A stretch of 61,372 nt of DNA, counting the filler. It is 4 parts of 4 records of this genome, joined end to end, with 100 filler letters (N's around TTAATTAATTAA, not from the genome) between each part and the next. Parts side by side here need not be neighbours in the genome. Positions count along the whole stretch, not along the records: positions 23,895 to 44,317 come from DRR723986_11710; 3 more parts are not named here. One strand, written 5' to 3'. Positions 4,875 through 52,233 of the stretch are shown piece by piece. A program made the position numbers and the translations under genes. The notes below the pieces were generated by a model. It did not search any database. It was not told the origin of the DNA and worked only from the letters and a program-made list of their open reading frames with translations. The first letter of the stretch is position 1. Each line of letters begins with the position of its first letter.

Positions 4875-6245
4875 TTAGCGGTTGTCGATCCAGCGGCGGG
4901 ATTTTCCTTCGCTGCGGGGAAGTGAGTTTGGTTGAGCCAGGGTGACGGGGATGCGAAGGCCGAGACGTGTCTCGAAACGCTGCTGCAGTGCTGTGATTTG
5001 TTCAGCAGAAGCTTCTACTTCCAGCGAAAGCTGATCTAGGTGCCCGTCGCGAGTGACCGTCACACGATACTCCGCCATCGCGAGTACCTCACGAACAATT
5101 CGATCAACACTAGATGGAAAGACATTCACACCGCGAATGGTCACCATATTGTCCGCGCGGCCAACAACGCCCTCAGGCAACCACAGAAAATTACACTGGT
5201 CGCTGGGCGGCTGGGCAATCTTGACGACATCTCCCGTCCGATAACGAATCACCGGTGCACCAAGGCGACCAATCGAGGTCAGAAGCAGCTCAAACAGCTC
5301 GTCGGCTTCCTCCGCGTCTTCCTTGTCACTTGGTGAATCGTTTGCTGTCGCCACCGGAATGAGCTCAGCGATAAAGCTGGTTTCAATTATGTGTAAACCG
5401 ATTCGATCTTGCCAGCCGAATCCCCAAGGGCCGATCTCAGTCGCACCACTATGATCGATGACTCGTGCCGACCAGGCTGATTCGATTTGCTGACGGACGC
5501 TTGGGACGCTACCACCCGCTTCGCCCGCAACAATCAAACGATCGATGGGTAAACTGGCCAGATCGAATTCGTTTTCCTTGGCCACTGCGGCCAGATGCAA
5601 CGCGTAACTGGGCGTGCAACAAACGATATTCGCGCCAGAAGTCCTCATGAAATCCAGCCTAGCGAGCGAGCTAAGGCCTCCGCCGGGGATGGCCAGAGCT
5701 CCTCGGTCAGCGATCGCCTGATGAGCACTCCAGAAGCCGACGAAGGGGCCGAAGCTGAATGCCAGGAACGCCCGGTCGCTCTCTTGCACCTGGGCTGCAT
5801 CCAAGACATGTTGCCAGGTCTGACTCCACCAACGCCAATCCGCCTCCGTATCCAACACCTTTAGCGGCGTTCCTGTCGTGCCACTTGTTCGATGCATCCT
5901 CGAATAGGCAGACGGCGGGTAAGTATGGTGACCGCTCAGCCCCTCACTGGATGAATCGGCAGACTGGACGAGGTCCTCTTTGTGAGTGATCGGAAGACTC
6001 GCCAGCTCGTCGAGCGAGTTCAGCCGCAGGTCCGTGCCCAAGCTCTCGCGATAAAACTCGTTGTGTGGCAGAACAGCGGCAAACTGGGCATTCAAACGCT
6101 CAAGCTGCCAAGCTGCAATCGCGTCCCTCGACCAACTCCAGCACTCCGACGGCCGTGGCATTTCAAATCCACTGGTCTCGCTAGCATTAATCCCGCTAGC
6201 ACTGGACTCACGAGTATGGCTTGAGGGCGAACGATGGGGCTTCAT
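4875..6245 (-). CDS. Phenylacetate-CoA ligase (PaaK) family adenylate-forming enzyme
   Basis: RTSGTTG P-loop, CTPSY, AGEAG, SGATEIG, RYRTGD, GRADNM..RGVNVFP; start trimmed from the ORF-track 6380 to the ATG at 6245 (uncertain). Confidence 0.85.
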   Translation of the reverse strand: MKPHRSPSSHTRESSASGINASETSGFEMPRPSECWSWSRDAIAAWQLERLNAQFAAVLPHNEFYRESLGTDLRLNSLDELASLPITHKEDLVQSADSSSEGLSGHHTYPPSAYSRMHRTSGTTGTPLKVLDTEADWRWWSQTWQHVLDAAQVQESDRAFLAFSFGPFVGFWSAHQAIADRGALAIPGGGLSSLARLDFMRTSGANIVCCTPSYALHLAAVAKENEFDLASLPIDRLIVAGEAGGSVPSVRQQIESAWSARVIDHSGATEIGPWGFGWQDRIGLHIIETSFIAELIPVATANDSPSDKEDAEEADELFELLLTSIGRLGAPVIRYRTGDVVKIAQPPSDQCNFLWLPEGVVGRADNMVTIRGVNVFPSSVDRIVREVLAMAEYRVTVTRDGHLDQLSLEVEASAEQITALQQRFETRLGLRIPVTLAQPNSLPRSEGKSRRWIDNR

Positions 6246-23794: not shown

Positions 23795-23894
23795 NNNNNN
23801 NNNNNNNNNNNNNNNNNNNNNNNNNNNNNNNNNNNNNNTTAATTAATTAANNNNNNNNNNNNNNNNNNNNNNNNNNNNNNNNNNNNNNNNNNNN
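23795..23894. other. Artificial contig linker
   Basis: N44-TTAATTAATTAA-N44 (stops in all six frames). Confidence 0.99.
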
Positions 23895-24300
23895 CTCCCG
23901 CCACTTCGCCAGAAAACCTCGGTGCCCGGAGATCCGCTTCCGAGGGGAACACCCCAGCACCGGGAATAACCCGGCCTTCCGGAGTTGTCAGGGATGCCCC
24001 TAACAGGTCCCACCCTGTGCCCTGAGCGCACCAAATTGCTCCTCGGGCGCTCCAGGCGTGAAAGAGCTGCACCAGACCCAGGATCGCGCTCGCGCCAGGG
24101 TTGATGCTGGAGGTGGATCCACTGCCCACACACACGATGTCGACATCGGACACCGCATCCTGTGGGGAATGAATATCCACCATCGACACGTCATACCCAA
24201 GATGACGCAGTGAAGATCCCAGAATTTCTGCCGATGCGCTGGAGCCATTGAGTCCCAGGATCTGGGGCAACACCCGAGCAATCGTGAACGAGGTACTCAC
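23895..24300 (-). CDS. gatD: Partial GatD/CobQ-like glutamine amidotransferase homologue (apparently lacking catalytic Cys)
   Basis: Overlaps the murT stop (GTGA); GatD-like layout LPQILGLNG, VGSG, AQGTGWDLLG, IPGAGVF, RFSGEV; truncated by the contig end. Confidence 0.75.
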
Positions 24301-25583
24301 GAGGCCCCCTCGAGTTCCTTGTAGCCCGCAAGGCGCCGAATGCTCATCATCTGTTCGTAGTTCACAATCGCGTGCACAGGCTGGGCGGTGCTAGCCGCTA
24401 ATCCCACCACGTGTCGAAGACCCTCAGCGGTATCTTCCACGATGTGGCCATAGGGAATTCCCCGGGTTTCTAGGAAAAGCGCCCACTGCAGGGCTTTGGA
24501 TCCCGAGAGCACATCGACGTGATCGAGCACCGAGATGTCGGCGTCATATATCCACGATGGATCGGGAGTTCCCTCATCGACGGCAATCCAGACGCGCTCC
24601 AGAGGTCCTTCCAGAGCATCAAGATTGACCTGGAGGCTGGGAAGGTTTTTCATCATGGTCAGAGCAATCTGGCGACCGCGATAGGTGATGACTTCCCCCC
24701 GTCCAAAAACCGGTGCACCGCCTGCCATGGCAGTGGCCACTCGATCAGCCTGGAGGCCATCGTCCACCATCACATCAGCCATGGCCAAAGCCAAGGTCGC
24801 ATCGACCCCGTAATGCAATCCGGGTGCAGGAAGCTCAAGGGTGAGCGAACTCCCCGAGAGCTCAATTGTTGCCGCGCTCCCCTCCATAGTGCGAAGAAGT
24901 GCGCGCGGCGCGCTGTGGTTGATATTCGCGCCAAGGTCCTCCTCCTGGTCAAAAAACAACGCAGCGGGAACTAAGCCATGGCTTGCGCTCAAGCGCGCTT
25001 GATCCGAGACATCGATGGTGTGGACGAGATGCCCGCTCTGAGAAAGTTTTGCCCCCATCATCGCCAGATTGGGATCCCCCGCGTTGAGCACAACACCGTG
25101 TGATGCCCCTGCTGAGAGATCATGAAGCATGCGATAGACGTTTTCTGGTTCGCCAAAACGATTGAGTTGGTCCACCTGGACGTTGGTAAGCACCACCCAA
25201 TCCGGTTTCACCAGGGCAGCGATCTGAGCACCGTAGGCCTCATCAACTTCTAAGACAGCAATATCTGCTCGGAGTCTCCCCCGCAGGCTCGCCTGGGAGA
25301 CCAAAGCAGACGCCAAGCCCTGGGGCAAATTACCACCAGCTGGATTGGTAAAAACCCTCATCCCGTGGGCGCGAAGGACAGAGGCCACCATGGTCGTGGT
25401 CGTCGATTTCCCGTTGGAACCCGAGACGAAAATCACTCCATGGGCCAGATTCGACAACGTGGCACCCAAAATGTCGGGACGCATTCGAAGGAGAACTAAT
25501 CCCGGAAAGGCTGACCCTCCGCCTCGAAGCCTCGTCGCAAAGCGAGCACACTTAGCAAGGGCGAAGGCAAGAAATTGACCCAT
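24297..25583 (-). CDS. murT: MurT-like Mur ligase (DUF1727 C-terminal domain)
   Basis: GGGSAFPG, SGSNGKSTT, GGNLPQG, LEVDE, DQLNRFGE, FGRGE, MKN, DPSWIYD. Confidence 0.88.
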   Translation of the reverse strand: MGQFLAFALAKCARFATRLRGGGSAFPGLVLLRMRPDILGATLSNLAHGVIFVSGSNGKSTTTTMVASVLRAHGMRVFTNPAGGNLPQGLASALVSQASLRGRLRADIAVLEVDEAYGAQIAALVKPDWVVLTNVQVDQLNRFGEPENVYRMLHDLSAGASHGVVLNAGDPNLAMMGAKLSQSGHLVHTIDVSDQARLSASHGLVPAALFFDQEEDLGANINHSAPRALLRTMEGSAATIELSGSSLTLELPAPGLHYGVDATLALAMADVMVDDGLQADRVATAMAGGAPVFGRGEVITYRGRQIALTMMKNLPSLQVNLDALEGPLERVWIAVDEGTPDPSWIYDADISVLDHVDVLSGSKALQWALFLETRGIPYGHIVEDTAEGLRHVVGLAASTAQPVHAIVNYEQMMSIRRLAGYKELEGAS

Positions 25584-25588
25584 GGGAT

Positions 25589-27283
25589 TTATTCGAGGTA
25601 GTCGCGCAGAGCTTGTGACCTCGAGGGGTGGCGCAGTTTGGCCATGGTCTTGGACTCTATTTGTCGTATGCGCTCGCGCGTTACGCCAAAGGTGTCACCA
25701 ATTTGGTCGAGCGTCTTGGGCATTCCATCGCCGAGACCAAAACGCATCCGAATAACGCCCGCTTCGCGCTCCGAGAGCGATTCCAAAAGGCTCTCGAGCT
25801 GACGCTGCAGCATGGTGAAGCCCACAGCATCGGCTGGCACAACAGCTTCAGTGTCTTCGATCAGGTCGCCGAATTCGCTATCGCCATCTTCACCCAGAGG
25901 AGTGTGCAGCGAAATGGGCTCACGACCGTATTTCTGAACCTCCACCACCTTCTCAGGGGTCATATCGAGCTCGCGGGCGAGCTCTTCGGGCGTGGGTTCG
26001 CGACCAAGGTCCTGGAGCATCTGACGCTGGACGCGGGCCAACTTATTGATGACCTCCACCATGTGAACAGGAATACGAATGGTCCGGGCTTGGTCTGCCA
26101 TGGCGCGAGTAATCGCCTGACGGATCCACCAGGTGGCGTAGGTAGAGAACTTAAAGCCCTTGGTGTAGTCGAACTTCTCTACCGCGCGGATAAGACCCAA
26201 GTTTCCTTCTTGGATGAGATCCAAGAATTGCATTCCGCGACCGGTGTATCGCTTCGCTAGCGAGACGACGAGTCGAAGGTTAGCTCCCAGCAGGTGGTTC
26301 TTGGCGCGCTGTCCGTCTTTGGCAATCTCGTGCAATTCACGAGCAAGCTTGGTGGTCTTCTGCGAGGCCGTCATCGCCGAGAGTTTTTCCTCGGAGAACA
26401 AACCAGCTTCAATTCGCAGGGCAAGTTCCACCTCTTGCTCGGCATTAAGCAAAGCGACCTTACCGATTTGCTTGAGGTAATCCTTGACCGGGTCCGCGGT
26501 CGCTCCGGTAATAGTGGTCGAAATAATCGGAGCGTCATCGTCATCCGTGCTGGAGAGAACTAACGCCCCCTGAGGAAGAACTTCTTTTTCTACTTCTTCT
26601 TCGTCATCATCGCTGCCGAGATCCGCCAAACCAGCGATGACTTCGGCACCTAATTTTTCCGCAACGACGTCAGGGGCGACCTCTTCGCCCTCGACTACGA
26701 CCTCTTCGACATCCTCGCTAGAAGCAGCGGCCTTGGTCGACGCTTTCGCGGCAGACGCCTTCGTAGCGGGAGCCTTTTTCGCGGGAGCTTTGGCTGGCGT
26801 AGCCTTCGCGACAGGAGCCTTCTTCGCAGGCTCTTTCTTTGCAGGAGCCTTCTTTGCAGTCGCTTTCGCTGCAGTTTTGGCAGCCGTGGTCTTCGCGGGG
26901 GACTTCGCGGCAGGCTTAGCAGCGGCTTTCTTCGCTGGAGCTTTAGCGGCGGCAGGCTTCTGTGCCGCGGGCTTCGCAGCAGTTGATTTTGCAGCCGTGG
27001 TCTTCGCTGCAGTCGACTTAGCTGCTGGCTTTTTCACTGCTGGCTTCTTCGCAGCGGGAGTTTTCTTCGCAGGCGCCTTAGCAGCGCTCTTTGCAGGTGT
27101 CTTGCTAGCGGAAGTCTTGGCGGACGAAGAAGAGGACTTAGCGGGTGGGGTCACTGGATCTTTCTGAGGTTCAGGCTCTGTATTTCTTTGAAACAGGCCG
27201 CCGATGCGACCAACGAAACTCTTTTTTTCAGGCTTTTTGCCCGCGGGAGCGCTCGACTTTGGTTCTGGTGTGCGTGACGCCAT
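25589..27283 (-). CDS. rpoD: Principal RNA polymerase sigma factor (RpoD/SigA/HrdB)
   Basis: [48 protein letters not shown]; long Ala/Lys/Pro N-terminus. Confidence 0.97.
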
Positions 27284-44317: not shown

Positions 44318-44417
44318 NNNNNNNNNNNNNNNNNNNNNNNNNNNNNNNNNNNNNNNNNNNNTTAATTAATTAANNNNNNNNNNNNNNNNNNNNNNNNNNN
44401 NNNNNNNNNNNNNNNNN
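44318..44417. other. Artificial contig linker
   Basis: N44-TTAATTAATTAA-N44. Confidence 0.99.
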
Positions 44418-52133: not shown

Positions 52134-52233
52134 NNNNNNNNNNNNNNNNNNNNNNNNNNNNNNNNNNNNNNNNNNNNTTAATTAATTAANNNNNNNNNNN
52201 NNNNNNNNNNNNNNNNNNNNNNNNNNNNNNNNN
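52134..52233. other. Artificial contig linker
   Basis: N44-TTAATTAATTAA-N44. Confidence 0.99.

Follow-up and report, generated by a model that had tools for sequence, protein, structure and literature searches.

A two-gene locus in the analysed DNA encodes a Microbacteriaceae-specific offshoot of the lipid II isoglutaminyl synthase MurT/GatD, and its GatD-like partner is a glutaminase-dead protein of the GatD fold that has no nucleophile. The locus lies in a stretch of 61,372 nucleotides (referred to here as the window) from a marine actinobacterium belonging to a family with walls cross-linked through D-glutamate (D-Glu). As judged from alignments, the MurT-like ligase subunit keeps every examined residue for binding ATP-Mg and the acceptor carboxylate. 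The pair may well be an amino-acid ligase for the D-Glu alpha-carboxyl of group-B peptidoglycan, a reading that we regard as evenly balanced and that draws on distribution, gene neighbourhood and residue changes.

Loss of the glutaminase site in the GatD-like partner

The gatD-like gene is present in the window as its first 135 codons. The full partner, a protein of 245 amino acids (aa), was obtained from a Pontimonas metagenome-assembled genome (MAG; locus L001, positions 5284-6018), whose residues 1-135 are 100% identical to the window fragment. Over this fragment, the two genes differ at five nucleotides, and all five differences are synonymous.

Around the nucleophile elbow, the GatD-like protein in the window reads AIWCAQGTGWDLLG. 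The 135-aa fragment alone gave no GatD match in Pfam or the PDB, and it scored 11 bits (E 0.24) against the NCBIfam GatD model. Its link to GatD came only through a profile built from 75 orthologues, not through a single-sequence search. This profile matched Staphylococcus aureus GatD (6gs2_A) with an E value of 6e-45, and the alignment was ungapped around the elbow (vlAvGaGwdLLg versus gLTICGGYQFLG), with Gly opposite Cys94.

An AlphaFold2 model of the full-length Pontimonas orthologue had a mean predicted local distance difference test score (pLDDT) of 94.4 and included a C-terminal helix at residues 219-242. When the model was used as a Foldseek query, the top nine matches were GatD chains, with template modelling (TM) scores of 0.72-0.83. 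A strand occupies residues 89-93 of the model and a helix begins at residue 94, so that Gly94 falls at the elbow and Cys91 within the strand. An earlier note on this DNA, made by eye from the sequence alone, had put Gly94 at the nucleophile elbow and Cys91 out of register, and both assignments agree with the profile alignment and the model. Cys91 as a shifted nucleophile was rejected, as the residue is buried mid-strand and only 4 of the 75 orthologues share it.

Position 94 was occupied by Gly in 55 orthologues, Ala in 19 and Ser in one, and by Cys in none. The position of the catalytic His189 was more variable (His in 30, Gly in 25, Gln in 10, Ser in seven and Arg in three). The window copy does not extend to this position, whose state was taken from the near-identical Pontimonas MAG, where it is Gly. 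The replacement of YGDxGN by NGSSAS and of GGGxD by GSGST, also proposed in the earlier note, was found at the equivalent positions, so that the lid residue Tyr17 is Asn and GGG reads GSG. Arg128, which captures glutamine in S. aureus GatD according to the available text of PMC5871853, is retained in the window and is Arg in 118 of 124 Cys-less rows of the family sample described below.

The divergence of the partner was also reflected in model scores. The full-length Pontimonas protein reached 20.6 bits against the NCBIfam GatD equivalog, whose cut-off is 400, and had no Pfam match. Less divergent GatD-like proteins of the clade passed Pfam PF07685 (72.2 and 51 bits), though not NCBIfam GatD. 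A search of the ESM Atlas returned GATase_3 clusters only, labelled Actinomycetota or Bacillota.

In the accessible parts of three earlier studies (PMC3266927, PMC6113224, PMC6085368), Cys94 and His189 of GatD and D349 of MurT are described as conserved, and the murT-gatD operon as universal in Actinobacteria. The substitutions C94G, C94S, C94A, H189A and R128A are each reported there, or in a further study, to end glutamine use by the S. aureus enzyme (PMC3266927, PMC6113224, PMC5871853). Taken together with Gly94 and the Gly at the His189 position, these mutant data mean that the partner cannot act as a glutaminase.

The MurT-like ligase subunit

The MurT-like protein matched the MurT chains of Streptococcus pneumoniae, S. 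aureus and Streptococcus pyogenes in the PDB with E values of 2e-25 to 2e-21, the alignments being weak over residues 262-421. It scored 56.9 bits against Pfam Mur_ligase_M (PF08245) and 17.5 bits against MurT_C (PF08353), for which the cut-off is 25; two other members of the clade, at loci L040 and L058, scored 29.6 and 26.0 bits. The NCBIfam MurT equivalogs NF045635 and NF052464 gave 99.8 and 87 bits, so the cut-off of 800 was not reached. The alignment with S. aureus MurT starts at the first residue of both proteins, and the N-terminal domain of MurC-F is thus absent.

The earlier note had described the ATP-binding motifs as intact, and GSNGKSTT, EVDE and DQLNRFGE are indeed all present. 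The P-loop Lys, Glu112, Asp114, Glu115, Asn85 and Asp341 showed no variation across the clade's 125 MurT-like proteins, and neither did Asp138 and Arg142. The EVDE segment forms the Mg/ATP site, and the equivalent of Asn85 in S. pneumoniae MurT contacts the acceptor carboxylate, as stated in the consulted portions of PMC6113224 and PMC6085368, respectively.

The C-terminal motif region reads DEGTPDPSWIYDAD. The MurT Asp of this region had been considered lost in the earlier note, and this could not be upheld: D349 of S. aureus MurT (RDTSW), the residue with which MurT completes the catalytic triad of GatD, aligns with Asp341 (PDPSW), which is kept in 125 of 125 proteins.

Other positions have changed throughout the clade. 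The canonical 'gate' position, Arg135 in S. pneumoniae, belongs to the RDQxDR loop facing GatD, where its role has been described (PMC6085368, partial text); it was Arg in 44 of 44 canonical MurT proteins versus Val, Ile, Thr or Leu in 125 of 125 of the Cys-less clade. In the C-terminal domain, the clade-specific changes comprised N261D (124/125), G316S, a remodelled DNAAD stretch, R363K and T410E/D (124/125), of which N261D and T410E/D bring in new acidic residues. The DNAAD-type stretch is implicated in stem-peptide binding in the available part of PMC6113224.

By position, the changes in MurT appear to lie where the nitrogen donor enters. The loss of the gate Arg together with the gain of acidic residues would be expected if a larger, cationic nucleophile had replaced ammonia.

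The protein has a single Cys and therefore no Cys4 ribbon. The absence of the zinc insert claimed in the earlier note is thus correct, but its value as a distinguishing mark is not, for 38 of 44 canonical actinobacterial MurT proteins also have no ribbon. Loss of the ribbon was accordingly rejected as a clade marker, and the partial texts of PMC6113224 and PMC6085368 describe the ribbon as restricted to some lineages.

Distribution, phylogeny and selection

The MurT-like protein was scanned against one genome per GTDB species, and 79 loci were obtained. The best of these was the Pontimonas sp. MAG, with a 97% identical MurT, which is in line with the assignment to Microbacteriaceae made in the earlier note. 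The other loci came from Leifsonia, Labedella, Conyzicola, Pseudoclavibacter, Microbacterium, Gulosibacter, Rhodoluna, Microcella, Rhodoglobus or unclassified MAGs; every named carrier belongs to the Microbacteriaceae. Four named Microbacteriaceae genomes each had exactly one GatD-like gene.

Two further samples, centred on a Conyzicola genome (G001), were searched with the GatD-like profile. The GTDB order sample comprised 151 genomes, 59 of them matching, and the GTDB family sample comprised 201 genomes, 158 of them matching; of the latter, 145 could be classified (150 loci, 149 genes) and 13 could not. In the family sample, 123 Cys-less genes were found in 122 of the 145 classified genomes, with Gly (87), Ala (23), Ser (8), Asn (3) or Thr (2) at position 94. 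One of these genes lies in two pieces, which gives 124 alignment rows. Canonical genes numbered 20 and were recognised by YGDxGN, GGGGQD, ICGxYQ and YLHG. Three genomes (G216, G297 and G298) carried both a Cys-less and a canonical pair.

In the order sample, 6 of 56 GatD proteins were Cys-less and 50 were canonical, three further weak matches being CobQ-like. Of the six Cys-less genomes, five are shared with the family sample and the other one belongs to the Cys-less clade; no loss of the Cys outside the clade was seen among the 50 other GatD proteins of the order sample. In a tree of concatenated MurT and GatD, the Cys-less proteins were monophyletic (124 of 124, support 0.986). The earlier note had proposed testing whether loss of both Cys and MurT Asp follows group-B taxa: the loss of Cys is clade-wide in Microbacteriaceae, and the loss of Asp did not materialise, since the residue is retained in 125 of 125 proteins. 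Separately, in a very small family-sample genome of 0.9 megabases (G166, locus L162), the retained pair has Ser in place of the Cys and still carries the His.

The ratio of nonsynonymous to synonymous substitution rates (dN/dS) of the GatD-like gene had a median of 0.16 over 80 gene pairs (range 0.03-0.38), and the MurT genes of the window and the Pontimonas MAG gave 0.20. The Cys-less pair is under purifying selection. It is hardly credible, then, that the pair is a decaying, functionless murT-gatD remnant, an explanation which selection and conservation exclude. The poor scores of the Pontimonas GatD-like protein, with no Pfam match and 20.6 bits where 400 are required, are what a remnant might give; against this stand the full-length, coupled open reading frames (ORFs) found family-wide, the low median dN/dS, the invariant ligase residues, the purely synonymous differences (5 of 5) from the closest relative and a fold that is predicted confidently.

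A candidate ligase for the group-B bridge

Microbacteriaceae have group-B peptidoglycan by family description. In peptidoglycan of this group, as reportedly set out by Schleifer and Kandler in 1972, the D-Glu alpha-carboxyl carries the bridge and not an amide. In walls of Microbacterium, D-Glu bears glycine. In Micrococcus lysodeikticus, Katz et al. reportedly observed in 1967 that glycine is added to the D-Glu alpha-carboxyl in an ATP-dependent reaction on lipid intermediates. Neither the attachment of the group-B bridge at this carboxyl nor the activity of Katz et al. has, to our knowledge, been linked to a gene. No published Cys-less MurT/GatD and no group-B bridge gene were found in the literature searched, most subscription journals lying outside its reach. 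The available part of the Pontimonas genome paper gives the wall genes and does not address the bridge.

In the proposed mechanism, the lipid-linked precursor would be activated at its position-2 residue, D-Glu, the alpha-carboxyl of which the ligase would turn into an acyl phosphate. The carboxyl would then be joined to the amino group of the first interpeptide-bridge residue instead of ammonia, this residue being glycine or a D-diamino acid depending on the lineage. The dead GatD would be structurally indispensable to the complex and might also contribute to the acceptor site. More specifically, and with slightly greater reserve than for an amino-acid ligase in general, the enzyme may be a lipid II D-Glu alpha-carboxyl:amino-acid ligase adding glycine or a D-diamino acid, with the former glutamine pocket holding the incoming amino acid. 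Such a re-used pocket at the MurT/GatD interface would combine the kept Arg128 and MurT Asp with the lost gate Arg and the new acidic residues. The repurposing suggested in the earlier note is partly supported by the dead glutaminase, the intact ligase and the tie between Cys loss and Microbacteriaceae, and its appeal to a lost MurT Asp has to be dropped.

The neighbourhood of the locus bears on this reading. In most named lineages, a two-gene pyridoxal phosphate (PLP) dependent racemase lies beside the gatD-like gene and consists of a protein with both Ala_racemase N and C domains and a protein with Ala_racemase_C only (L001:6028-6381; L003:5987-7830; L078:6066-8035; L044:6017-7785). The racemase genes are mostly convergent with the gatD-like gene and run in the same direction in Labedella. 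In the near-identical Pontimonas MAG, the racemase starts right after gatD; in the window, that region lies beyond the contig end. Another strong Ala_racemase_N match was present elsewhere in the racemase-carrying genomes, so that the racemase at the gatD side is an extra paralogue. Microbacterium-like loci have no adjacent racemase. Rhodoluna carries one, and its wall is reported to be B-type (B2-beta) with D-diaminobutyric acid (D-Dab), yielding D-Ala-D-Dab and Gly-D-Glu peptides (PMC4156110, partial text). Racemase adjacency as a clean marker of a subclade was rejected, as there are at least five racemase-less subclades.

Mur_ligase_M matches numbered 7, 6, 6 and 7 in the four named genomes. 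Beyond the five assigned to MurC-F and FolC, the MurT-like gene appears to be the sole Mur-family ligase common to these genomes. Further Mur_ligase_M genes occur in the Conyzicola genome G001 and in genome G004 (a seventh match), and are possible alternative wall-modifying ligases; in G001, such a gene adjoins another Ala_racemase_N gene (C3:180860-182628), away from the division and cell wall (dcw) cluster.

Several observations weigh against a bridge ligase. A canonical Cys/His pair only, at another locus, was found in 17 of the 145 classified family genomes, and in four of these a single MurT was confirmed; should their walls be of group B, the bridge must be made there by a different enzyme. 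A third GatD variant occurs in 6 of the 145, and 43 of the 201 family-sample genomes gave no match to the GatD-like profile. Racemase adjacency is patchy in loci from outside the named lineages (47 with, 61 without and 16 that could not be assigned). Remnants of the old site persist, with His in 85 of 123 genes, Arg128 in 118 of 124 and the MurT Asp in 125 of 125, and these retained residues could equally mean a residual nitrogen-handling role.

A last point on that side is that, in vitro at pH 8.5, ammonia supports the amidation of lipid II by the S. aureus complex containing GatD C94G, GatD still being required (PMC3266927, PMC6085368, both as partial texts). D-isoglutamine might correspondingly still be made from free ammonia in these bacteria, with the GatD-like protein kept as a scaffold for MurT; the residue at position 94 is always small (Gly, Ala, Ser, Asn or Thr), as a purely structural elbow would need. 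We nevertheless consider this unlikely, because ammonia-dependent amidation requires none of the clade-wide changes at the gate Arg, the DNAAD stretch or the acidic positions, and because it would be redundant in the three genomes that also have a canonical pair. It also conflicts with group-B chemistry as outlined above, where the D-Glu alpha-carboxyl bears the bridge and not an amide, and with the Gly-D-Glu and D-Ala-D-Dab peptides of the Rhodoluna wall (PMC4156110).

The same ATP-dependent chemistry may instead serve another acceptor or donor, such as a different precursor carboxyl or an amine that is not an amino acid, or the pair may have a non-catalytic binding or regulatory role. The altered DNAAD stretch, with its part in stem-peptide binding, and the divergent C-terminal domain (17.5 bits against MurT_C) would fit such a change. 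Asn85 and all ATP-Mg residues are nevertheless invariant, which argues for catalysis on a similar carboxylate, and the locus sits with the housekeeping genes for sigma-70 and a gyrB-like protein, as expected for core wall synthesis; on balance, this group of explanations also seems rather improbable.

An intact ligase with a dead glutaminase, clade-wide and at a fixed locus, thus provides a concrete, testable candidate for group-B bridge attachment. Attachment of the bridge to the D-Glu alpha-carboxyl is the step that defines group-B peptidoglycan. If the reading as an amino-acid ligase is true, an amidotransferase has turned into an amino-acid ligase and kept its glutaminase as a pseudoenzyme subunit; if the pair only amidates with ammonia, the structural role of GatD can outlive its catalytic role.

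Gene layout, neighbouring genes and assembly

The features of the locus are listed in Table 1. The window consists of four contigs joined by N44-TTAATTAATTAA-N44 linkers at positions 23795-23894, 44318-44417 and 52134-52233, and the murT-gatD-like locus stands at the very start of contig 2 (23895-44317), on the minus strand. The contig ends directly after codon 135 of the gatD-like gene, and the truncation, already remarked on in the earlier note, is therefore an artefact of assembly at the first joint and not biology. A search of the window's other three contigs recovered neither the missing 3' part of gatD nor the racemase. Contig 1 (1-23794) carries genes for a DUF389 protein, for an FKBP with an N-terminal domain and for a sugar-isomerase-like protein with a twin-arginine translocation (TAT) signal.

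Table 1. Features of the murT-gatD-like locus in the window, with the canonical-pair loci of the family sample
Feature	Position	Strand	Remark
murT-like gene, 428 aa	24297..25583	-	Mur-ligase central and MurT-type C-terminal domains, without N-terminal UDP-binding domain
gatD-like gene, 5' part, 135 codons, GTG start	23896..24300	-	cut by contig end
GTGA overlap of murT TGA stop and gatD-like GTG start (translational coupling)	24297..24300	-	4 nt
P-loop GSNGKST, residues 55-61	25401..25421	-	Lys invariant, 125/125
EVDE, residues 112-115, Mg/ATP site	25239..25250	-	E, D and E invariant, 125/125
Val137 at canonical 'gate' Arg position (S. pneumoniae Arg135)	25173..25175	-	RDQxDR loop facing GatD
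DEGTP, residues 336-340, in place of DNAAD-type stretch	24564..24578	-	three residues shorter
Asp341, equivalent of S. aureus MurT Asp349	24561..24563	-	retained, 125/125
Cys91 codon	24028..24030	-	mid-strand, Cys in 4/75 orthologues
Gly94 codon, nucleophile-elbow position (Cys94 of S. aureus GatD)	24019..24021	-	
Arg128 codon, equivalent of S. aureus GatD Arg128	23917..23919	-	retained
principal-type sigma-70 gene	25589..27283	-	conserved neighbour, ends 5 nt upstream of murT-like gene
artificial contig joint N44-TTAATTAATTAA-N44	23795..23894	.	bases left of joint are not genomic context
canonical-pair loci in family sample	L163-L187, L190, L191		e.g. G177, G207, G218, G300

The coupling seen in the window is general. 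Among the 79 related loci, a start codon was found at or no more than 7 nucleotides (nt) from the murT stop in 78, overlapping it in 76, and in the same number, 78, the ORF downstream of murT encodes about 240 aa; the remaining locus (L018) is cut by its own contig end. MurT was upstream of the GatD-like gene in all 174 loci with room to tell.

In the Cys-less clade, the order of the locus is fixed as sigma-70, murT and gatD, and a gyrB-like gene is also a neighbour. None of 44 canonical pairs adjoined sigma-70 or gyrB, their chromosomal locus being different from that of the Cys-less pair. The gap between sigma-70 and the murT-like gene is 5 nt in the window and 8 nt in relatives, and the 5-nt spacing suggests that the two genes are co-transcribed. 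The first 190 or so residues of the sigma-70 protein are rich in Ala, Lys and Pro, and their match to the histone-like HC2 model was below the cut-off.

The third GatD variant (L154-L159, in genomes G346, G277, G182, G240, G310 and G273) occupies the same sigma-70/gyrB locus as the Cys-less pair. In its GatD, the Cys is replaced by His and the His by Ile or Leu; its MurT has Asn at the D349 position and, in five of the six cases, a CxxC...CxxC ribbon. In the tree, the variant sits on a very long branch.

Comparison with known systems

The known MurT/GatD complexes are those of S. aureus (6gs2, 6h5e, 5n9m), S. pneumoniae (6fqb), S. pyogenes (9sq9, 9sqj) and Mycobacterium tuberculosis (Rv3712/Rv3713). 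The window-type pair shares with them the coupled two-gene operon, a ligase made of central and MurT-type C-terminal domains without the N-terminal domain, the P-loop, the Mg site, the acceptor Asn and the GatD-facing Asp, as well as a GatD fold with an extra C-terminal helix. It differs from them in that the nucleophile Cys is absent and the His often so, no gate Arg is present, the DNAAD stretch has been shortened and remodelled, the lid Tyr17 is Asn and GGG has become GSG. The pair also lies at another chromosomal locus and scores far below the curated equivalog cut-offs.

The engineered S. aureus GatD mutants C94G and C94S carry the same class of nucleophile substitution, and in those mutants the complex still forms. 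Made in the laboratory, these mutants do not work with glutamine and use only ammonia, at high pH (PMC3266927, PMC6113224, accessible parts). In contrast, the change in the Cys-less clade arose naturally, extends across the clade and goes along with changes in MurT.

The MurC-F ligases use ATP-dependent acyl-phosphate chemistry, as would the window pair, and link an amino acid, through its amino group, to a carboxylate; the MurT-like protein matched the MurF, MurC, MurE and MurD models with E values of 5e-15 to 1e-9. Unlike the window pair, MurC-F bind UDP-MurNAc precursors through their N-terminal domain and have no GatD partner. The two orphan activities, namely the glycine addition in Micrococcus lysodeikticus and the attachment of the group-B bridge, are the same as the reaction proposed for the pair.

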